From Mustelus asterias (Eukaryota), in contig NW_027590204.1 of the NCBI RefSeq assembly GCF_964213995.1, forward strand, positions 434,001 to 498,000: a stretch of DNA of 64,000 bases. The letters run 5' to 3'. Below the pieces are notes generated by a model, which ran no database searches, was not told the DNA's origin, and saw only the letters and a program-made list of their open reading frames with translations. Positions 12,030-61,410 of this stretch are shown here, one piece after another; position 1 is the first letter of the stretch, and the number at the start of each line of letters is the position of its first letter. The translations under genes and the position numbers were made by a program.

Positions 12030-12720
12030 TCCCCATTTAAAACCCGCTCGCTCGAGCTCCTTACCGTCTGCCGCAGGCACTGCGCATGCTCCAGCTCCCA
12101 AACCAGGATGGGGCCGTTAACCTGGGCCTGTTCCCGGGAGGGAGGGAGGGAGAAGCCCCGCAGCTGCAAACCAGGGAGCTGACAATGATTCTGAAGGGTT
12201 TGCGGATCCTCCCCAATCTCCAACCGCCGGCTCCGCCGCTGCGATATTGACTCCGCCCCCACCAGGTTTTATCTGAGTGTTGGTCCTCCAGCCCCGCCCC
12301 TCATTCACTCTGATTGGTTGGAGGACCAGCCGCACCCGCTCGGTCCCCCAGCCCCGCCCCTCATTCACTCCGATTGGTTGAAGGACCAGCCGCTCCTGCT
12401 CGGTCCTCCAGCCCCGCCCCTTCTTCCGATTGGTCCGGAGCTGCCGTCAATCAGTCCCCGGGCATTGTGATGTGGAGCATGCGCAGTGTCATTGCTGTCC
12501 TTGGCGCTTGTTTGTCCCGGAGAAGCGGAGTCAGCGTTAGGCGGTGGCTGGGAGGATTTGGAAACACTTTGTGGATCCGCAAACCCTTCAGAATCATTGT
12601 CAGCTCCCTGGTTTGCAGCTGCGGGTCTTCTCCCTCCCTCCCGGGAACAGGCCCAGGTTAACGGCCCCATCCTGGCTCAGCCACTGGAGGATGGTTCACA
12701 TCAGAGGATGGGGGAGGGGG
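12030..12720. promoter_or_regulatory. Bidirectional ZNF promoter/exon-1 cassette with ~105-bp inverted arms
   Basis: Arms 12103-12209 and 12573-12675; core of ~60-bp units each with CCCCGCCCC and ATTGG; NRF1-like GCGCATGC; minus-strand donor G|GTAAGG near 12064. Confidence 0.7.
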
Positions 12721-12959
12721 ACAATAAATAAGAGGTTACACTTTGGCCTCAAATCAATGAGGACTCTGATCTCTGGGAAGGAAGGAAACCCTGGGAGGTG
12801 GGCGGGGAGGATTCACAAACACCCGCTGGAGGTCCCAACACCTCCAATAAGACCCATTGGTTTTATTGTCAGTCTGCAGACAGGAGCTGGAGAACTGAAC
12901 CCAGACAGAGGAGAGGGAGGGAGAAAACTGGGAGTGGAGGAAAGAAATGATGCTGAATG

Positions 12960-33982: not shown

Positions 33983-34479
33983 TGATTGCAAAAGAATTAA
34001 GGGGCACAGATTTAAGATTTTGAGCAAAATCTACAGGGCAATATGAGGAAGAAATTTTACACCATGAGGGGTAATGACTTGGAACTCAATGCTTACGTTC
34101 AAATGATGACTACATCCAGGTCCTGATGAGTTGAGTAACAATGTCAGTTTTTGATGTGACGTTTCATTTGAGATTTGTGTCTGCAAATCCTCTTCTAATA
34201 CCTGAAAATGAAATGTACAAAGGGCATCACTGTCAGTCGAAAAATGAAATTCAATAAGAAGTTGTCCAGGACAACGACTCAGGCTCCCTGCTGCACTTTT
34301 CCCTTTGTCATTGTCAGCAGTCCCTCGATTCGACGACGATGTCTCCTCAGGGTCGCGAGTTTCTGCCATGGATCTTCATGTGACTGAACTGAGCCCACAG
34401 ATCTTCGGGCCAATGGGAAAGACATCCCATGATATTGTGGGATCTGGAAAGCAGAATGTATTTCCCTTTCCAAAAGAGG

Positions 34480-34567
34480 AAATGCTGGAAAATCTCTGCA
34501 GGTCTGGCAGCATCTGTAAGGAGAGAAAAGAGCTGACGTTGAGGCCAGATGACCCTTTGTCAAAGCT
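34480..34567 (-). mobile_element. Short non-autonomous element with degenerate hammerhead-like motif (family B)
   Basis: AATGCTGGAAAATCTC.GCAGGTCTGGCAGCATCTG..GATGACCCTTTGTCAAAGCT; copies at 35515-35607 and 54543-54728. Confidence 0.65.
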
Positions 34568-34714
34568 ATTTCCCTTTCTTTCCTTCTCTGCCACCGCTCT
34601 GCCTCATCAATAAGACATTGGGACTCAGAGGGTTGATGCAGTTTGATGGACAAGTTGTCTCCATTCTGAACAATGGGGAACAAGCTCCTCCCACTCATTG
34701 ACAATATTACCCCC

Positions 34715-35130
34715 GAAAACGATGGCGGCTGCGCATGCGCCTTGTTGCATATTGCCCCCAATAAAGATGGCGGCCTTGAACGCGGCCCGAACATGAGGTG
34801 CTGCGGTACCGCTCGGTACAAACTGGGTCCGCGAAGCTCTTTACCGAGGTTCACGGCTGACACAACCTGCTTACGCAGCGTTTCCGTCCACCCGCGAGAT
34901 CCCTCGCCCCCTCCGTACCGTCAATCACCGCTAACCGATCTCCGAGCCGAAAAAACAGCCCGTCTCCGTCGCCATTACCCACAATGCGCATGCTCCAGTC
35001 AGAGCGGGCTCCGCCCCTCATTCACTGTGATTGGTTGGAGGACCAGCCTCTCCCGCTCGGACCTCCAACCGTGCCCCTCCTCTTCCCATTGGTCCGCGCT
35101 GCCGTCAATCAGCCGGGCATTGTGACGGTG
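34715..35130. promoter_or_regulatory. CpG-island promoter/exon 1 (probably for ZNF at 30.9-31.7k)
   Basis: GATGGCGGC twice, GCGCATGCGC, GC-box/ATTGG unit shared with 12.3k; minus-strand donor C|GTAAGC near 34874. Confidence 0.65.
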
Positions 35131-35741
35131 ACTTGCTGCTTGTCCAATAATAAGTGAGAGCGTCTCAGTGTGACAATGACACACAGACTCTTTTTTTTAA
35201 TACTTTTCCAATTCAATCAAATCAAATCCAATTCAGAGTCTCAACAAGTTGAGACATTTCAGATCCAGGCTGACAAGACAGGACGGGAGACCAAAACCAC
35301 CCTGTCCTGGGCCTGATCTACATGAGTCAAGCTGATTGGAGAAGGGGGAGGATCCTCCTCCAAGACTTGAGCTCATAATCAGAGTGGGGAATGGAGCACA
35401 GAGACAACACAGCAAAGCACTGACTTACTCTGAGTGTAACAATGACACACACAGGCTCCAATACAATCAGAGTGGGGATGGAGCACAGAGACAACACAGC
35501 AAGGCACTGACTTCAAAACAGAAAATGCTGCAAAACCTCAGCAAGTCTGTCAGCAACTGTGGAGAGAGATTCCAGCCAACGTTTCGAGTCTGGATGACCC
35601 TTTGTCATGGATTGGCTTGACTTATTTTGGGTTGACTGACTCTGAGTGTAACAAACACAGTGTTTATTCCAATAATAAGAGTCAGGCTGCAGTGTGTAGT
35701 GAACACAGTATTGGATCCAATGTAATGATAGTACAGAGGGT

Positions 35742-44219: not shown

Positions 44220-45590
44220 CACAAAGACCCGCCCACTCACGGTTGCGTCACCAAGACACCAACGCGTGCGCTCTGCTCCCCGCTGAATCAAGATGGCGGC
44301 TGTTAACCTGAGCTTCGTCTCGGGAAAAAGATCCGAAGCAGCAAACACGGGACCTACGGGCTCATATTCGAGGTTTGAGGCCTTCACCAGATATTTAGAC
44401 ACCCTCTCCGTCCATCCGCCGCTTCCATTGCTCCCTCTATGTTTCTGCATCCTTACCGGCTGCTGATGAGACACAGGAACTTCTCTCCAGTTGCTGTCAC
44501 CCACACTGCGAACGCCGTTGCTTACTGCGCATGTGCATCTCTCACATGCAAAGAATAGGGAACTCTTCCTATTGGTCCGGGCCCTCATTCAGTGCGATTG
44601 GTTGGAGGACCAGCCGCTCCCGCTCGGTCCTCCAGTCCCGCCCCTCATTCACTCCGATCGGTTGGGTGACCAGCCCCGCCCCCTCTTCCTATTGGTCCGG
44701 AGCTGCCGTCAATCAATCCCCGGGCATTGTGATGTGGAGCATGCGCTGTGTCATTGCTGGCCTTGGCGCTTGTTTGTCCCGGAGAAGCGGAGTCCATAAG
44801 ACCATAAGACATAGGAGCTGAAGTAAGGCCATTCGGCCCATCGAGTCCACTCCACCATTCAATCATGGTTGATTTCAACTCCATTTACCCGCTCTCTCCC
44901 CATAGCCCTTAATTCCTCGAGAATTCAAGAATTTATCAATCTCTGTCTTGAAGACGCGTTAGGCGGTGGCTGGGAGGATTTGGAAACACTTTGTGGATCC
45001 GCAAACCCTTCAGAATCATTGTCAGCTCCCTGGTTTGCAGCTGCGGGGCTTCTCCCTCCCTCCCTCCCTCCCTCCTGGGAACAGGCCCAGGTTAACGGCC
45101 CCATCCTGGCTCAGCCACTGGAGGATGGTTCACATCAGAGGATGGGGGAGGGGGACAATAAGAAATCTTAGAAACCCTACAGCACAGAAAGAGGCCATTC
45201 AGCCCATCGAGTCTGCACCGACGACAATCCCACCCAGGCCCTACCCCCATATCCCTACATGTTTACCCACTAATCCCTCTAACCTACGCATCCCAGGACA
45301 CTAAGGGGCAATTTTAGCATGGCCAATCAACCTAACCCGCACATCTTTGGACTGTGGGAGGAAACCGGAGCACCCGGAGGAAACCCACACAGACACGAGG
45401 AGAATGTGCAAAATAAATAAGAGGTTACACTTTGGCCTCAAATCAATGAGGACTCTGATCTCTGGGAAGGAAGGAAACCCTGGGAGGTGGGCGGGGAGGA
45501 TTCACAAACACCCGCTGGAGGCCCTAACACCCCCAATAAGAGCCATTGGTTTTATTGTCAGTCTGCAGAGAGGAGCTGGAGAACTGAATC
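44220..45590. promoter_or_regulatory. Paralog of the 12k promoter/exon-1/intron cassette, interrupted by a CR1 tail (44796-44955) and a partial HE1 SINE (45162-45411)
   Basis: 44585-45590 nearly colinear with 12300-12900 once the inserts are removed; minus-strand donor G|GTAAGG near 44456. Confidence 0.75.
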
Positions 45591-45915
45591 CATGATGTGG
45601 AGATGCCGGCGTTGACTGGGGTAAAGACAGTAAGAGGTTTAACAACACCAGGTTAAAGTCCAACAGGTTTATTTGGTCACAAATGCCACTAGCTTTTGGA
45701 GCGCTGCCCCTTCGTCAGGTGGAGTGGAGAAATGCTCACAAACAGGGCATACAGAGACACAAACTCAATTTACAGAATAATGATTGGAATGCAGTCTTTA
45801 CAGATAATCAAGTCTTAAAGGTACAAACAATGTGAATGGAGGGAGCATTAAGCACAGGCTAAAGAGATGTGTATTGTCTCCAGACAGGACAGCCAGTGAG
45901 ATTCTGCAAGTCCAG
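45591..45915 (-). mobile_element. Penelope-like pLTR fragment with hammerhead motif (45686-45722; GAAA mutated to AAAA)
   Basis: Reverse complement aligns to 23150-23416 plus the CCAGTC.AACGCCGGCATCTCCACATC extension. Confidence 0.85.
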
Positions 45916-46107: not shown

Positions 46108-46561
46108 CTCCCAAAACATTAAATCTGTTTCTCTCGCCAGAGGTGCTGTCAGACTCGCTGTGTTTTTACAGCACTTCCTGTTTGTATTTATGAGTTCAAG
46201 AGTCAGGCCAGAAAGAAATTTAAAGACAGTTTGGCCCGGTGGGCGAATGGAAGAGAGGGAAGGAGCAGAGGCAGCTGATCAGATTGTCTCAATCTTGGTG
46301 ACAAAGAAGCTCCATCAGCTCCTCACACTTGTTGGAGGTGAGGATGGAGGAGACGGGAGAGGGGGAAGCCCTTCAAATGGAACTAACATGTTTGAGGTAT
46401 TAAAAGCATTCATCACACTGTGTTGAACATAAAGCTTGTGTATTTGAGTTCCACCCAAAATATAAACCTTCCAACTGGGCTAGGATTTATCAGCAGAAAC
46501 AGGCACCAATGAAAATAGTCAGGACCTTGATGTGATTAAGAACAAACTCCAGTCCTTGCAG

Positions 46562-52854: not shown

Positions 52855-53200
52855 CAACCAGGGAGCTGACAATGATTCTGAAGGGTTTGCGGATCCACAA
52901 AGTGTTTCCAAATCCTCCCAGCCACCGCCTAACGCTGACTCCGCTTCTCCGGGACAAACAAGCGCCAAGGACAGCAATGACACTGCGCATGCTCCACATC
53001 ACAATGCCCGGGCACTGATTGACGGCAGCTCCGGACCAATAGGAAGAGGAGCGGCTGGTCCTCCAACCAATCTGAGTGAATGAGGGGCGGGACCTGAAGC
53101 ATGCGCAGTGCGGGGAATGGCGACGGACGGTTTCCTTTATCCAATTCCCGATGGGGAACTTTAGAAAATTGAACAACATCAACATCTGTGAGTAAAACAC
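52855..53200. promoter_or_regulatory. Bidirectional promoter cassette between divergent ZNF genes (52.0k minus, 55.2k plus)
   Basis: 52857-53092 is the reverse complement of ~12350-12612; plus-strand donor CATCT|GTGAGT at 53187. Confidence 0.7.
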
Positions 53201-53819
53201 TTCCTTTTCTCCCCCTTTCCATTTCTTTTCTCATTCTGGGGGAAATTGGGGACCTGCAGCAACTGAAGATAAAGGAAGTGAATCCAGGGAGGTTGCAGAC
53301 TCTGGAAAGATTGGCCCAGGTCTCTCTCTCTCTTAAACCAGAAAATGATCCATTTCTGCCCACTGTTTGCTGTTAGCCAATCTTCTATCCACGCCAATAT
53401 GTTATCCCCACAGCATGAATTTTTATTTGCTGCAATAACCTTTCATGTGGCACCTCATCAAATGTCTTCTGGAAATCTAAGTACAGCGCATCCACCGGTT
53501 TCCCTTTATCCAATTCCCGATGGGGAATTTTAGAAAATTGAACTACACATCAACTATCTCACTCTGTTAAGACCCGAGAATGAAGCCCAGCAGGACCCGA
53601 GGACTCATCAGCCCACAGCTCCAACAGTTTGCTGAGGACTACTTCCCTGGGAATTGTGCTTTTTCAGAGTTCATCCCACACTTCTGTTTTCTGATTTCCA
53701 GCTGTTTCTGAGTTTTAACTGTGTCCTCTATTGTGAACACCGAGGCAAAATACTTGTTCAATTCATCTCCCAGCTCCTTATTTTTCATCATCAATTCCTG
53801 GACTCACTTTCTATTAGAC

Positions 53820-54540
53820 AGTTAAGAAATGAGGTCGAGCAAGTGACTGAAATGTCAGTCAGGGAGCACTATTGGGAGCACCAATAGTTTCAAAATAGTT
53901 CTGGAAAAAGATGGGACAGGTCCACAGGTCAAGGCCCTAAACAGGAGCAGGGCCACTTTTGTGGGCATTAGGCAGGATCGAGCAGATGTCGATTCGGTGA
54001 GTTTGTTTGAAGGGAAAGGAATGACTGGCAAATGGGAGGTTTTAAAAGTGTGATATCAAGAGTCCAGGGGCAGTATATTCCTGTTAAGATGAAGGCAAAG
54101 AATGGTAAATTTAGGGATCTCTGGCAGACAAGGGACATTGAGGCTCTGGTCAGGTAAAAGAAGGAAGCAGACATTGGGTTTAGGCAATTGGGGACAAGTG
54201 AATCACTCTGACTATAAAAAGTGTAAGAAAATACTGAAGAGGGAAATCAGGAGGACAAAAAGAGGGTATGATATGGACCTGGCAGGTAAGATTACAGAAA
54301 ATTCCAAGAGGTTCCATAGCTATATTAAGAGTAAAAGGGTGGCTAGAGAGAGAATAGATCACCTTAAAAATCAGTATGGCCATCTGTGTGTGGAGCCACA
54401 GGAGATGGGTGAGATTTTTAATGAATACTTCTCCTCTGTGTTTACTGCGGAGAGCACCATGGGTGCTAAAGAAATAAGGGAAACAAGTGGTGATGTCTTG
54501 GGCACACGCATGTTACTTGGGAGGAGGTATCTGCAGCCTT
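53820..54540 (+). mobile_element. CR1 ORF2 fragment
   Basis: KREIRRTKRGY..ENSKRFHSYIKSKR..NEYFSSVFT. Confidence 0.85.
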
Positions 54541-54542
54541 AT

Positions 54543-54728
54543 AAAAGCAAATTACTGCGGATGCTGGAATCTGAAACCAAGAGAGAAAATGCTGGAAAAT
54601 CTCAGCAGGTCTGGCAGCATCTGTAAGGAGAGAAAAGAGCTGATGTTTCTTGTCTAGATGACCCTTTGTCAAAGCTCTGAAACATCAGTTCTTTTCTCTC
54701 CATACAGATGCTGCCAGACCTGCTGAGA
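54543..54728. mobile_element. Family-B short element with ~49-bp inverted arms around a degenerate hammerhead-like motif
   Basis: 54601-54649 pairs with ~54679-54727; GATGACCCTTTGTCAAAGCT between them. Confidence 0.7.
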
Positions 54729-55214
54729 ATGGGGAGAGAGTGTGTGGGATGGAGATTTCCAGCTTTTGGGGAATGAGAGAGGAAAGAATGTTCCATAGAA
54801 ATTGTCTGTTCTGAATTTCTATCCTGTATTGACACTGATGACTTTTGGAAACTCATTTTACAGGATATTGAAAGAGGAATCACAGGCCGAAATCTCAAAC
54901 GTCACGTCTAGATCTGACAGAGTCATATTCCTTGGGACCTCAATATCATCGGATTTTGAATCCAGAAGGAGAAATGATTGTCCAGTCTGTCGATTTGAAA
55001 AGATTTGAAATGTCAGTGTGAGTGAAAAAGCATCAACACACTGCCACACTCGAGTGAGAGTGTTCCAGTGCACTGACTAAAGAGCTTTAACCAATTACAC
55101 AGTCTGAATAAATATCACACCATTCACAGCGGGGAGAGACTGTAATCTTGTTCTGTGTGTGGACGAAGTTTCAACGAATTGTCCACTCAAGAGAGACGTA
55201 AGGACACCTGCACC

Positions 55215-56168
55215 ATGGAGAAACCATGGAAATGTGTGGACTGTGGGAAGGGATACAGAGCCCCATCTAAGCTGGAAGCTCATCGGCGCAGCCACACTGG
55301 GGAGAGGCCATTCATCTGCTCTCAGTGTGAGAAGGGATTTAATCATTTACCCAGTTTACAGATACACCAGCGAGTTCACATTGGGGAGAGGCCATTCACC
55401 TGCTCTCAATGTGGGAAGGGATTCAGTCAGTTATCTGACCTGCAGAGACACCAGCGAGTTCACACTGGGGAGAGGCCATTCACCTGCTCTCAGTGTGGGA
55501 AGGGATTCACTCGGTCATCGCACCTGCAGAGACACCAACGCATTCACACTGGAGAGAGGCCATTCAACTGTTGTCAGTGTGGGAAGGGATTCACTCAGTC
55601 ATCCACCCTGCGGACACACGAACGACTTCACACTGGGGAGAGACCGTTCACCTGCTCTCAGTGTGGGCAAGAATTCACTCAGTCAGCCGACCTGCAGAGA
55701 CACCAGCTACGTCACACAGGGGAGAGGCCGTTCACCTGCTCTCAGTGTGGGAAGGGATTCACTCTGTTAACCCACCTGCAGAGACATCAGCGAGTTCACA
55801 CTGGGGAGAAACCATTCATCTGCTCTCAGTGTGGAAAGGGATTCGCTCAGTCATCTGACTTGCAGACTCACCAGCGAGTCCACACTGGGGAGAGGCCGTT
55901 CACCTGCTCTCAGTGTGGGAAGGGTTTCAGAGTTTCATCCCGGCTGCTGAGACACCAGCAAGTGCACGAGGGGTTGGATTCTGCTGTTATTGTTTCTGCT
56001 GTCAATTACATCCAGGACTGCATTTTGTTCATTCTCACAGTTGGTCAATGGGGAGGGTCAGAGGGTTTCTTTGTGCTGGACTGGCCGGTCTCAGCCTCCA
56101 GTGGGCTGATGCTCTTTGAGTCTTTTTGCGAATACCTGGTTTCAAATGTCACAAGGATCACAGAGTGA
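55215..56168 (+). CDS. C2H2 ZNF protein, 9 fingers, with read-through C-terminal extension
   Basis: Acceptor at 54863; ACCATGG start (MEKPWKC); family stop codon after HE is missing at ~55970. Confidence 0.82.
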
Positions 56169-56214
56169 CAGGGTGTTAGGAAGTTTAGAGATATTTAGTC
56201 AGAAGAAAACAGAG

Positions 56215-57870
56215 GTTGGCAGTGCAAAGGTACATTTCTGAATGGAGGGCTGTGACAAGTGACATTCCTCAGCGATCAGTGCTGGGACTTTTGCTGTTTG
56301 TGATATATATAAATGATTTGGAGGAAAATGTAACTGGTTTGATTGGTAAGTTTGTGGACGACACAAAGGTTGGTGGAATTGCGGATAATGATGGGGACCG
56401 GCAGAGGATACAGCAGGATATAGATCAGTTGGAGACTTGGGCGGAGAGATGGCCGATGAAGTTTAATCCGGACAAATGTGAGGTAATGCATTTTGGAAGG
56501 TCTAATACAGATGGGAAATATACAGTAAATGGCAGAACCCTTAAGAGTATTCATAGGCAGAGGGATCTAGGTGTACAGGTACACAGGTCATTGAAAGTGG
56601 CAATGCAGGTGGAGAAGATAGTCAAGAAGGCATATGGCATGCTTGCCTTCATCGGCCGGGGCATTGAGTTTAAAAATTGGTAAGTCATGTTGCAGCTTTA
56701 TAGAACCTTAGTTGGACCGCACTTGGAATCTAGTGTTCAATTCTGGTCACCACACTACCAGAAGGATGTGGAGGCTTTGGAGAGGGTACGGAAAATATTT
56801 ATCAGGATGTTGCCTGGTGTGGAGGGCATTAGCTATGAGGAGAGGTTGGAGAAACTTGGTTTGTTCTCACTGGAACAACAGAGGTTGAGGGGGGGGGGGG
56901 CGACCTGAAAGAAGTCCACAAGATTATGAGGGGCATGGACAGAGTGGATAATCAGAAGCTTTTTCCCGGGGTGGAAGAGTCAATTACTAGGGGCATTGGT
57001 TTAAGGTGCGCGGGGCAAGGTTTAAAGGAGATGTACAAGGCAGGTTTTTTACACAGAGGGTGGTGAGTGCCTGGAACCCGTTGCCGGGGAAGATAGTGTA
57101 AACAGATACGATAGTGACTTTTAAGATGTATCTTGACAAATATATGAATAGCATAGGAATAGTAGAACAGTACAGCACAGAACAGGCCCTTCGGCCCACA
57201 ATGTTGTGCCGAGCTTTATCTGAAACCAAGATCAAGCTATCCCACTCCCTATCATCCTGGTGTGCTCCATGTGCCTATCCAATAACCGCTTAAATGTTCC
57301 TAAAGTGTCTGACTCCACTATCACTGCAGGCAGTCCATTCCACAGCCCAACCACTCTCTGCGTAAAGAACCTACCTCTGATATCCTTCCTATATCTCGCA
57401 CCATGAACCCTATAGTTATGCCCCCTTGTAATAGCTCCATCCACCCGAGGAAATAGTCTTTGAACGTTCACTCTATCTATCCCCTTCATCATTTTATAAA
57501 CCTCTATTAAGTCTCCCCTCAGCCTCCTCCGCTCCAGAGAGAACAGCCCTAGCTCGCTCAACCTTTCCTCATAAGACCTACCCTCCAAACCAGGCAGCAT
57601 CCTGGTAAATCTCCCCTGCACTCTTTCCAGCGCTTCCACATCCTTCTTATAGTGAGTTGACCAGAACTGCACACAATATTCCAAATGTGGTCTCACCAAG
57701 GTCCTGTACAGTTGCAGCATAACCCCACGGCTCTTAAACTCCAACCCCCTGTTAATAGAGGGATATGGTCCCCGGAAGGGTAGGGGGTTTTAGTTCAGAC
57801 GGGCAGCATGGTTGCTCCAGGCTTGGAGGGCCAAAGGGCTTGTTTCTGTGCTGTAATTTTCTTTGTTCTT
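56215..57870 (+). mobile_element. CR1 RT and 3' end with a nested antisense CR1 3' end (~57163-57753)
   Basis: Both carry QFWS and FFTQRVV motifs; AATAG on both sides of the nested copy. Confidence 0.9.
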
Positions 57871-58149: not shown

Positions 58150-58290
58150 AACCCAAACCCCGGAAATGAACTTCCCGGTTCCCCCCTTTGTACCCAATGG
58201 AGCGGCAGCTTGTAGTGTTAGACCCGGGCTGACTGCCGCCATTGAGGCTGCATGTGGGAGGCCGGCAGGGATTGTGATCGGAGAGTGAAG
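58150..58290 (+). promoter_or_regulatory. Candidate promoter/exon 1 for the ZNF at 60.2-61.1k
   Basis: ETS-like CCGGAAAT..ACTTCC pair, YY1-like GCCGCCATT, local CpG enrichment. Confidence 0.45.
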
Positions 58291-58293
58291 CCC

Positions 58294-58404
58294 TGACGTC
58301 ACAATGGAATGGGTGAGCGTGTGACGTCACAATGGAATGGGTGAGAGTGTGATGTCACAATGGAATGGGTGAGGGTGTGACGTCACAATGGAATGGGTGA
58401 GGGT
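58294..58404. repeat. 28-bp tandem repeat x4, each unit with a CRE palindrome
   Basis: TGACGTCA at 58294, 58322, 58378; TGATGTCA at 58350. Confidence 0.92.
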
Positions 58405-58457
58405 TCCTGATGAGCTGAGACAGGGCTGGAGTCGGGCGATGGCACTGACATGTGACC

Positions 58458-58750
58458 CGGTGGCACAGTGGTTAGTGCAGCTGCCTAACAGCGCCAGGGA
58501 CCCGGGTTCGATTCCAGCCTCGGGTCGCTGTCTGTGCAGAGTTTCTACATTCTCCCCGTGTCTGTGTGGGTTTCCTCTGGGTGTTCCGGTTTCCTCCCAC
58601 AGTCCAAAGATGTGCCGGTTAGACGGATTGGCCATGATAAATTGCCACTTGGTATCAGGGGGAATTAACAGGTAAATATGTGGATAGGGCTTGGATAGGG
58701 ATTGTTGTCGGTGCAGGCTCGATGGGCTGAATGGCCTCCTTCTACACTGT
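58458..58750 (+). mobile_element. HE1-like V-SINE
   Basis: Head, core and tail present. Confidence 0.9.
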
Positions 58751-59182
58751 ATTTTATTATTCATTACTTTAAATTAATTACTATTAATGCTTCTATGAAT
58801 GAAGGTGGTCTTGATGATGATGTGGACATGTGGCTGGAAGCTCATCTTGAGATGAACTATTTCACCCTGGTTGTGAACAGCCTGGTTCAGCCTCAGACAG
58901 TTGCCAGGAGGAGAGATAAAGTTGTTGGTGAGGGAGTGGAGTTTGTAGCGGGGACTGAACACAATGGGTTCAGTCTTCCCAGTATTTAAATGAAATAAAT
59001 TTCTGTTGTTTCAGTACTGGATGTCAGACAAGTCAGGATGGTGTGTGGGTTGGAGAGGAACTTGGAGCTGATGGTGTTCACAGGGTTTGGAAATTCTGTC
59101 AAAGTTCCTGTTGAGTTGTTGGTGAATAAAATCTCTCTCCTCACCTCCGGCCTCTCCTACTTCTCTCTGTTTCCACTCAGAG

Positions 59183-59238
59183 TGTGGAGATGCCGGCGTT
59201 GGACTGGGTAAGCACAGTAAGAAGTCTCACAACACCAG
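59183..59238 (-). mobile_element. Penelope-like terminal fragment
   Basis: TGTGGAGATGCCGGCGTTGGACTGGG..GTAAGAAGTCTCACAACACCAG. Confidence 0.75.
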
Positions 59239-59244
59239 ATGAGA

Positions 59245-59460
59245 ATCCATTGATATGGATGGAGATTTACAACTTTTTGGGAATGAAATAGGAAAGAATG
59301 TTCCATAGAAACTAGAATTGTCTGCTCTGAATTTCTATCCTATATTAACTGTGATGACTTTTGCAAACTCATTTCACAAGATTTTGAACGAGGAATCACA
59401 GGCAAAAATCTCAACCGTCACATCGAGACAGAGTCATATTCCTTGGGATCTGAATATCTT
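59245..59460 (+). pseudogene. Orphan ZNF intron-end and exon-start remnant
   Basis: Aligns to 54750-54945 and 60030-60235. Confidence 0.75.
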
Positions 59461-60153
59461 GTAATATGGAACTGTAGCTACGTTATATCTTTCCAGACAT
59501 CTCTTCCCTCAGAGGACTGTTAGTCTTTTGGATTTCTCTTCCACAGGGACCAGTGGAGGCTGAGGATCATTGAATATATTCCAGTTAGACAGATTTTTGA
59601 CTGACAAGAGTGTCAAAGGTTATGGGGAACAGACAAGAAGATGGAGCAAAAGCTAAGATGTGGGGGGATTTCTTCACTCAAGGATGTGGTAAAGATTTGG
59701 AATTCTCAACCCCTGAGGACAGTGAAGCCTCAGTCATCAACTATTTTCAAGAGTTTGATTGATTGGTTTCTCGATATTGAGGAGATCAAGGGATATGGGT
59801 TTAGTGTGGGGAGAATGATGCTGAGGTAGATGAACGAATTATCTCATTGAATAGTTTAAAAGGCTCGATGGGCCAAATGGCCGACTGCAGCTCCTATTTG
59901 TTATGGTCTCTGTGTCCAGGACAGGAAGCAGTGAGCATGGATCTGTCAATCAGCCTCAATCAACACCTTCAGGAGAATTGGGAGGGTGAATATTAGATAC
60001 AGCAGAGTGAGAATGGAGGGAGAGTGTGTGGGATGGAGATTTACAGCTTTTGAGGAATGGGAGAGGAAAGAATGTTCCATAGAAACTAGAATTGTCTGTT
60101 CTGAATTTCTATCCTGTACTGACACTGATGACTTTTGTAAACTTGTTTTACAG

Positions 60154-61093
60154 GATATTGAAAGAGGAATCACAGGCCGAAATCTCAAACATCACGTCAG
60201 ATCTGACAGAGTCATATTCCTTGGGAGCTGAATATCATCGGACTTTGAATCTAGAAGGAGAAATGATTGTCCAGTCTGTTGATTTGAAAAGATTTCAAAC
60301 ATCAGTGTGACTGGAAAAGCACCAACACACTGCCACACTCGAGTGAGAGTGTTCTAGTGCTCGGACTAAAGAGCTTTAACCAGTTACACAGCCTGAATAA
60401 ATACCACACCATTCACAGCGGGTAGAGACGGTACCCGTGTTCTGTGTGTGGACGAGGCTTCAACTGATTGTCCACCCAAGAGAGAGGCAAGGACACCTGC
60501 ACCATGGAGAAACCATGGAAATGTGGGGACTGTGGGAAGAGATACAGAGCCCCATCACAGCTGGAAGCACATCGGCGCAACCACACTGGGGAGAGGCCAT
60601 TCACCTGCTCTCAGTGTGGGAAGGGATTCACTCGGTCATCCAGCCTGCAGACACACCAGCGAGTTCACACTGGGGAGAGGCCATTCACCTGCTCTCGTGT
60701 GGGAAGGGATTCACTCGGTCATCCAGCCTGCGGGCACACGAGCGCATTCATACTGGGGAGAGACCGTTCACCTGCTCTCAGTGTGGGAAGGGATTCGGTG
60801 ATTCATCCAGCCTGCTGAGACACCAGCCAGTTCACACTGGGGAGAGGCCATTCACCTGCTCTCAGTGTGGAAAGGGATTCTGTGATCCATCCAGCCTGCT
60901 GAGACACCAACGAGTTCACACTGGGGAGAGGCCGTTCACCTGCTCTCAGTGTGGGAAGGGATTCGCTCAGTCATCCAACTTGCAGGCACACCAGCGAATT
61001 CACACTGGGGACAGGCCATTCACCTGCTCCGTGTGTGGGAAGGGATTCACTCAGTCACCTCACCTGCTGAAACACCATCAGGTTCACGAGTGA
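60154..61093 (+). pseudogene. C2H2 ZNF with a 1-bp deletion at ~60697 (7 fingers if corrected; ATG at 60504)
   Basis: TGCTCTC-GTGTGGG versus TGCTCTCAGTGTGGG in neighbouring fingers; otherwise open. A sequencing error cannot be excluded. Confidence 0.75.
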
Positions 61094-61239
61094 CTGCAAG
61101 GACTGGATTTTGCTGTTAATCACATCGAGGTCCCAACCATTTTCATTGGTGTCTGTTTCTGCTGATGTTAATAAACCCGAGCCCAGTTGTAAGATTTGTA
61201 TTGTGGATTGTCTTGTCTGAGTCCTGAACTCGTAAATAA

Positions 61240-61410
61240 AAACAAGAAGTGCTGTAAAAACTCAGCAGGTCTGACAGCATCTCTGGAGAGAGAAACAGAT
61301 CTAATGTTTTGACACTGAAGAAGAGTCACATTCAACTGGAAACATTAATTGTTCCTGACTTTACAGATTCTGTCAGACTTACTGAGATTTTGCAGCAACT
61401 TCTGTTTTTA
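61240..61410. mobile_element. Degenerate inverted-repeat short element with hammerhead-like centre
   Basis: Arms CTCAGCAGGTCTGACAGCATCT / AGATTCTGTCAGACTTACTGAG; centre CTGAAGA-A-GAGTC..GAAACAT at 61315-61346. Confidence 0.55.

Follow-up and report, generated by a model that had tools for sequence, protein, structure and literature searches.

In assays, a U3-A8 pair rescues the activity of the hammerhead ribozyme. The tertiary pair at these positions is otherwise C3-G8 (PMC3884650). The minimal hammerhead of Penelope-like elements (PLEs) was defined by Cervera and De la Pena (2014), who describe no activity for the monomer and low activity for the dimer, and the same paper lists ~1,300 hits to U3-A8 minimal hammerheads in the Cercyon PLEs of Schistosoma mansoni (PMC4209133).

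Here we analyse a hammerhead family in a 64,000-nt stretch of the Mustelus asterias genome (the window) and in the genome around it. Its closest described relatives are the Cercyon PLEs as presented in PMC4209133. In both, a type I minimal hammerhead lies in the pseudo-LTR and has U3-A8 in place of C3-G8, with an extra unpaired base after A9, G10.1-C11.1, and a palindromic 15.1-16.1 segment without a loop 3. Most copies are single and truncated in both cases, and some lie close together in opposite orientation. The present case differs from Cercyon in that the host is a vertebrate, and in that the subfamily is homogeneous (~4% non-CpG divergence) and has a close C3-G8 sister in the same genome. 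Among the rows of the Figure S3 alignment of PMC4209133 that we compared, the vertebrate ones are all C3-G8 and none is from a shark, and our literature search found no report on hammerheads of Penelope elements in sharks or other elasmobranchs. Contrary to what an earlier note on this DNA had implied, the swap itself is not new, because U3-A8 minimal hammerheads have already been published for Schistosoma PLEs (PMC4209133). The new point is the position at which many copies start, the first base of this predicted self-cutting RNA, which is likely where the RNA of the element starts.

Our preferred explanation, which we consider probable, is that these copies are decayed, 5'-short insertions of a PLE subfamily whose pseudo-LTR minimal hammerhead has fixed U3-A8 and is predicted to be a weak ribozyme, likely situated at the 5' end of the RNA.

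Copies in the window

The window is a C2H2 zinc-finger cluster on contig C172 of the 3.68-Gb genome. Within elements, we number positions from the first base of stem I (position 0), which places the predicted cut at +35. The features that concern the hammerheads are as follows.

34470-34567, minus strand: 98-bp short insertion of the U3-A8 PLE subfamily, with the U3-A8 state at 11/11 diagnostic columns
34531-34567, minus strand: damaged minimal type I hammerhead of this insertion, with U3 at 34563 and A8 at 34558
34460-34469, strand unassigned: target-site duplication (TSD) at the 3' end of the 34.5-kb element, part of identical 12-mers
34568-34577, strand unassigned: TSD abutting the first hammerhead base of the 34.5-kb element
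35514-35607, minus strand: 5'-truncated copy of the C3-G8 sister subfamily, starting at U4, with the sister state at 7/11 diagnostic columns
54542-54676, minus strand: sense arm of a U3-A8 fold-back insertion with a long 3' tail, with the U3-A8 state at 10/11 diagnostic columns
54679-54728, plus strand: inverted, 5'-truncated second arm of the 54.6-kb insertion, starting at G12 (50 nt, 96% complementary)
61237-61410, plus strand: older fold-back insertion of a related PLE family, with a decayed hammerhead that has C3 at 61315 and G8

The earlier note had quoted three minus-strand hammerhead strings as carriers of the swap and a copy at 61,315 as keeping C3-G8. When the window letters were re-read, all three strings were found where the note had placed them, and the plus-strand copy at 61,315 indeed retains C3-G8. 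As witnesses to the swap, two of the three strings stand: the copies at 34,531 and 54,638 are true members of the U3-A8 subfamily, but the copy at 35,575 belongs to the C3-G8 sister. In addition to its seven sister-state columns, the 35,575 copy shows the U3-A8 state at two of the 11, one of which is A8 itself. This copy stops short of position 3, and its A8 (35603) falls in the C7pG8 CpG of the sister; CpG decay is the likely origin of this A8.

Both true members are structurally broken. In the 34531-34567 hammerhead, one stem II pair is broken and 2 nt are missing from the G12-A13-A14 box, and we therefore predict that it is dead. In the 54638-54676 hammerhead (U3 at 54672, A8 at 54667), the base of stem II is broken. 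The 34.5-kb insertion extends from the first hammerhead base to the frequent short 3' end (~+99), and many genomic copies have the same two ends. Its TSD is formed by identical 12-mers at 34459-34470 and 34567-34578, each of which overlaps one base of the element.

All four window copies have a 3' region of ~65-100 nt in common. The 54.6- and 61.3-kb copies are fold-backs with the hammerhead at the centre; the latter comes from an older, more decayed family and shares 73% identity with the former. One further truncated arm of this older family (89% identical) lies at 46112-46193, where it is interrupted before the hammerhead by another repeat. An Rfam search of the window gave no hammerhead match at E <= 1, and its matches of the microRNA hairpin type were dismissed as far below the gathering score.

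The 54,638 copy sits inside a duplicated C2H2 zinc-finger unit. We scored 40 loci of 1,674 first-look candidates, and all 40 match a 181-nt query plus flank at 99-100%. The shared flanks identify this copy as one insertion multiplied as a passenger of the zinc-finger unit, not as many insertions. At 53060-56249, a C2H2 zinc-finger exon and ~2-3 kb of flank that includes the 54.6-kb fold-back are repeated on many contigs at 92-99% identity (loci L001-L030), and parts of this unit also match the window at 12353-12904, 44956-45592 and 58152-61118. The unit seems to have been amplified recently. The interval 34700-35150, which separates the 34.5- and 35.6-kb copies, is GC- and CpG-rich with CCAAT- and GC-box-like words, and is likely the promoter of a zinc-finger gene. 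Elsewhere, at 12140-12642, a 70-nt inverted repeat with 99% complementarity and 363 nt spacing is likely a young non-autonomous DNA transposon.

The U3-A8 subfamily and its C3-G8 sister

An exact 30-nt U3-A8 core has 3,200 matches in the 3.68-Gb genome, far more than expected by chance, against 0 for the reversed-pattern control. A diagnostic 20-nt piece of the 3' tail has 14,317 exact matches genome-wide, with fold-backs counted twice. The first 100 of these tail matches, all in the first 9.5 Mb of contig C1, served as a core-blind sample. Positions 3 and 8 are covered in 82 of these arms, which comprise 75 U3-A8, 2 U3-G8, 2 C3-A8 and 3 other combinations, with no C3-G8. The proposal that U3-A8 is the state of the family and not decay is thus borne out. 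The consensus put forward earlier is also correct: it equals the majority of the 100 tail-picked arms (loop ATCTG), its GAAACGT is intact, and some real copies, L172 among them, carry it without a single change.

The core boxes (C/U)UGAN(G/A)A and GAAA, together with U16.1-H17, are present in the family majority and in real copies, and the 3-8 pair of the subfamily is Watson-Crick compatible. The extra base after A9, G10.1-C11.1, a 4-bp stem I and the ACGU palindrome without loop 3 are all present, and folding gives the 5-bp stem II a pair probability of 0.99. Non-CpG divergence averages 4.0% over 77 long copies, so the subfamily is no longer young. Both the older and the younger upstream haplotypes retain U3-A8.

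Across the genome, positions 3 and 8 co-occur as the note had supposed, with an odds ratio of 69 from exact core counts of 3,200 for U3-A8, 134 for U3-G8, 526 for C3-A8 and 1,518 for C3-G8; the U3-A8 pattern fixed C7, and the other three patterns left position 7 free. Since the two diagonal classes go back to a single lineage split, this covariation represents one fixed event and not thousands of independent ones. Read in this way, the sequences identify U3-A8 as a genuine compensatory variant at the level of the family, in an element of a known kind. CUGANGA searches overlook this subfamily, one of the large hammerhead subfamilies in the M. asterias genome.

The off-diagonal classes fit mutation after insertion. 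The sister has C7, so its C7pG8 is a CpG. The mirror-image T7 product of this CpG is seen in 35 of the first 100 C3-G8 matches (counted by eye), which extrapolates to a genome-wide number about as large as that of the C3-A8 class, and 11 of the 15 C3-A8 loci examined have the sister tail. Because C7pG8 decays to A8, an A8 in a single copy is untrustworthy as a mark of the subfamily. In the mechanism that we propose, the same change would have supplied half of the swap, G8 to A being the expected product of CpG deamination at C7pG8. A single source element would have acquired the swap, with the 3-8 pair preserved, and later source elements would have passed it on.

Compared to the sister majority, the U3-A8 subfamily has five differences in the hammerhead, and all remaining core and stem bases are identical. 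Two of the five make up the 3-8 pair, one retains the 2.1-1.1 pair, one lies in loop II and one is within the allowed N17. About half of the 23 bases just upstream of the hammerhead differ between the subfamilies.

We considered an intermediate lineage that led from C3-G8 through a U3.G8 wobble to U3-A8. The 13 long U3-G8 copies cluster on the tree (8 changes vs 12.4 when shuffled, 1/500) and carry a sister-like upstream haplotype. This lineage was rejected by a core-blind reading of arms with the older upstream haplotype, which numbers 548 in the genome. Of 90 such arms, 82 were readable; 78 are U3-A8 (one by a doubtful alignment) and 3 have G8, two of them already known, so there was no major wobble-intermediate lineage. 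An association of the U3-G8 copies with an 11-bp indel proved to be a selection artefact, as 9 of 14 unbiased long copies have the indel. A supported small clade contains four U3-G8 copies and one U3-A8 copy (L100, L102, L107, L362 and L171), and may mark a minor U3.G8 wobble source element.

The parent Penelope-like element

In the upstream direction, longer copies cross a pyrimidine-rich stretch before they reach the end of an ORF. The short copies are continuous in sequence with the 3' region of this PLE, so they are the ends of a PLE and have no family of their own, contrary to the separate short-element family that the earlier note had envisaged. The autonomous-type Penelope-like partner for which the note had suggested a search was found, as a PLE that bears the U3-A8 terminus and an ORF with reverse transcriptase (RT) and GIY-YIG motifs. 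The U3-A8 hammerhead belongs to the pseudo-LTR of this PLE.

All of the 30 loci that best match the 765-nt ORF end are U3-A8, in a set selected by resemblance to a U3-A8 copy. In 30 loci chosen by their RT region, 24 sense hammerheads are in reach, 23 of them U3-A8 and 1 U3-G8. In Pfam, RVT_1 scores above the cut-off (E 1.2e-8) and GIY-YIG weakly, below it (E 0.014); a Pfam search of P0001 gave no match. Between two hammerheads there follow, in order, the RT motifs, a linker CxxxxCxxC, a CxxC cysteine pair and YIGET, and the linker and GIY-YIG cysteine motifs are both found in P0001, L171 and L172. Direct U3-A8 hammerhead pairs flank the RT/EN ORF in 3 of 10 long loci.

L171: direct hammerhead spacing of 3,312 nt
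L175: direct hammerhead spacing of 3,699 nt
L176: direct hammerhead spacing of 3,427 nt

This architecture corresponds to that of the C-terminal EN+ PLEs of the Neptune/Nematis type as described in PMC8557442, which likewise have an RT, a linker of the form CX2-5CxxC and a GIY-YIG domain with two internal cysteines. Pseudo-LTRs in partial tandems, an inverted 5'-truncated copy and a 30-40-bp tail at one end are also common to both. Inverted 5'-truncated arms are indeed frequent in the present element, and its 3' ends cluster near +99-105 and +135. Unlike those PLEs, however, it has no intact ORF in the 70 long loci searched, where the longest open stretch is 544 aa. The passages of PMC8557442 compared here do not mention two further traits of the present element, its TATA box at -30 and the copies that start on the first hammerhead base.

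The short copies could instead belong to a separate, self-propagating non-autonomous family, SINE- or retrozyme-like, given that most are 100-135 bp long with recurring ends and some TSDs. In particular, animal non-LTR retrozymes are also hammerhead-bearing non-coding sequences related to PLE pseudo-LTRs, but they are described as tandem monomer arrays, whereas the present copies are dispersed stubs and fold-backs (bioRxiv 10.64898/2026.07.22.740005). Among the loci examined we found no retrozyme-type tandem monomer arrays, only one partial duplication (L055). In addition, the sequence of the stubs does not differ from that of the PLE pseudo-LTR, 15 of the 100 core-blind arms continue more than 140 nt farther upstream into it, and the stubs themselves are without the TATA box. 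These observations largely refute a separate family, which we regard as highly improbable.

Start positions, cleavage and folding

The core-blind arms start preferentially at the hammerhead: 30 of the 100 at position 0 and 50 at 0 to +3, compared to 3 at +35. Of 29 sister-tail arms, ~8 by eye likewise begin at 0 or beside it. A TATAAAT begins at -30 both in the U3-A8 subfamily and in five sister copies (L084, L099, L272, L280 and L284), and its spacing is the same across both subfamilies even though about half of the intervening bases differ. With half of the sampled copies starting within 4 nt of the first hammerhead base, 30 nt past the TATA box, the templates were likely mostly uncleaved RNAs that start there. 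We infer that transcription starts at position 0 and that the RT runs off uncleaved RNA. In this mechanism, the TATA box would direct initiation to the first base of stem I, and the RT of the element would prime from one cut DNA strand, or from both, at ~+99 or +135 of a pseudo-LTR. Usually it would run off the uncleaved 5' end, leaving 100-135-bp stubs and fold-backs with a complete hammerhead at their start. Our literature search found no account of a TATA-driven start at the hammerhead in Penelope-like elements.

The pile-up of 5' ends could also have come from insertion chemistry, such as RT stalling or annealing of AGCT cDNA ends, or from splicing at an acceptor-like site, an origin that we find doubtful but still worth weighing. 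Among the 58 arms that start at -3 to +4, 39 are in fold-backs, whose paired arms are not independent; many of these are centred on the AGCT palindrome, which can itself favour a junction at position 0. The bases before +2 also read as a splice acceptor, with a pyrimidine tract and an AG that ends at +1 in both subfamilies, and the Drosophila Penelope intron ends at helix I (PMC4209133). However, 19 arms outside fold-backs start at the same site. A TSD was found in 7 of the 19, five of them within 2 nt of the start, compared to 0/342 for mismatched pairs; in the other 12 none was found at threshold. A TSD that mostly abuts the start leaves no room for an upstream exon, and no upstream sequence is shared by the copies that start at 0 among the 100 core-blind arms. 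The 3.8-kb insertion L175 and the 34.5-kb window copy both begin at exactly position 0, directly next to a TSD, and the conserved TATA spacing also argues against an origin by chemistry or splicing.

Among loci L241-L359, several fold-backs form perfect palindromes about the position-0 AGCT. Both of their arms begin there, which resembles the outcome of two cDNA ends annealing through the self-complementary strand of stem I.

The one Penelope promoter studied is that of Drosophila virilis Penelope (PMC2377424). As in that element, transcription in ours would start inside the pseudo-LTR and upstream of the ORF. The D. virilis promoter is described as TATA-less and internal, whereas an upstream TATA box would be used here. 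A 75-bp intron lies 46 bp downstream in D. virilis Penelope, whereas in the present element the hammerhead would occupy the first 39 nt (PMC2377424). In L172 (1000-1135), a possible 74-nt intron would run from a GT at +32 to a pyrimidine tract whose AG ends at +105, and would be similar in length to the 75-bp 5' intron described for Drosophila Penelope. The donor of this candidate is weak and not kept in the sister, and its joint is absent from the listed alignments to RNA contigs of four runs that cover the region.

A transcription start at position 0 would, if correct, put the ribozyme at the capped RNA 5' end and mean that most of the templates copied were uncut, which narrows the models of what PLE hammerheads do.

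Across the 100 arms and the junctions, we found no clear cleavage footprint at +35 in the U3-A8 subfamily beyond microhomology. The 3 arms that start at the predicted cut are all inside fold-backs. Homology is lost just upstream of the cut in 304 of the 14,317 arms. By eye, 17 of the first 100 of these junctions end at +35 and join the start of the other arm via a 4-nt AGCT microhomology, 8 and 10 others use neighbouring microhomologies, and just 1 runs clearly into unrelated flank. The same test in the sister gave 436 matches, blurred by older families with the common tail.

These results could mean that the ribozyme is dead or dispensable, with U3-A8 having hitch-hiked in one successful source lineage and its pairing being a coincidence of two common transitions. 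All copies come from one lineage, so that the covariation counts as one event, and most templates were evidently uncut. In fact, PLE clades without canonical hammerheads proliferate well (PMC8557442), and minimal PLE hammerheads cut poorly in vitro (PMC4209133). Nevertheless, we judge this unlikely. The five differences from the sister are confined to structure-keeping sites, next to an upstream segment in which about half of 23 bases changed; U3-A8 persists in older and younger haplotypes; and the same swap was independently fixed in Schistosoma PLEs (PMC4209133). This case for function is indirect. We favour a motif that is predicted to be a weak self-cleaving ribozyme, in which cleavage, if any, would require dimers formed through the ACGU palindrome and would be inefficient.

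More tentatively, an LTR-like TATA promoter may place the hammerhead in the first 39 bases of the RNA as a 5' switch whose cut removes the capped leader, with tens of thousands of stubs recording the uncut 5' end. In this extended model, which we think possible but somewhat less probable than not being so, U3-A8, U17C and G1.1A would be co-adapted against a 6-bp misfold and would make a matched ribozyme pair in one vertebrate genome.

Nearest-neighbour folding provides a potential reason for the swap. An alternative trap arises when the core pairs with the 15-17-1.1 strand. In combination with the C17 and A1.1 of this subfamily, a core with C3-G8 would, by this prediction, be held in an inactive 6-bp helix, and the swap may have been kept for this reason. 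The trap lies below the hammerhead frame by 1.5 kcal/mol in U3-A8 and by 5.1 when C3-G8 is put into the U3-A8 context; the gap in three sister copies is 2.4-2.6. In a real U3-G8 copy it is 4.2 kcal/mol, but in a real C3-A8 copy only 2.4. Because of this last value, and because the energies ignore tertiary contacts and leave the hammerhead frame a minority fold in every variant, we offer misfold avoidance as a hypothesis. Together with the start-site reading, it is the part most worth testing, and the two closely related sisters, U3-A8 and C3-G8, lend themselves to a measurement of compensation.
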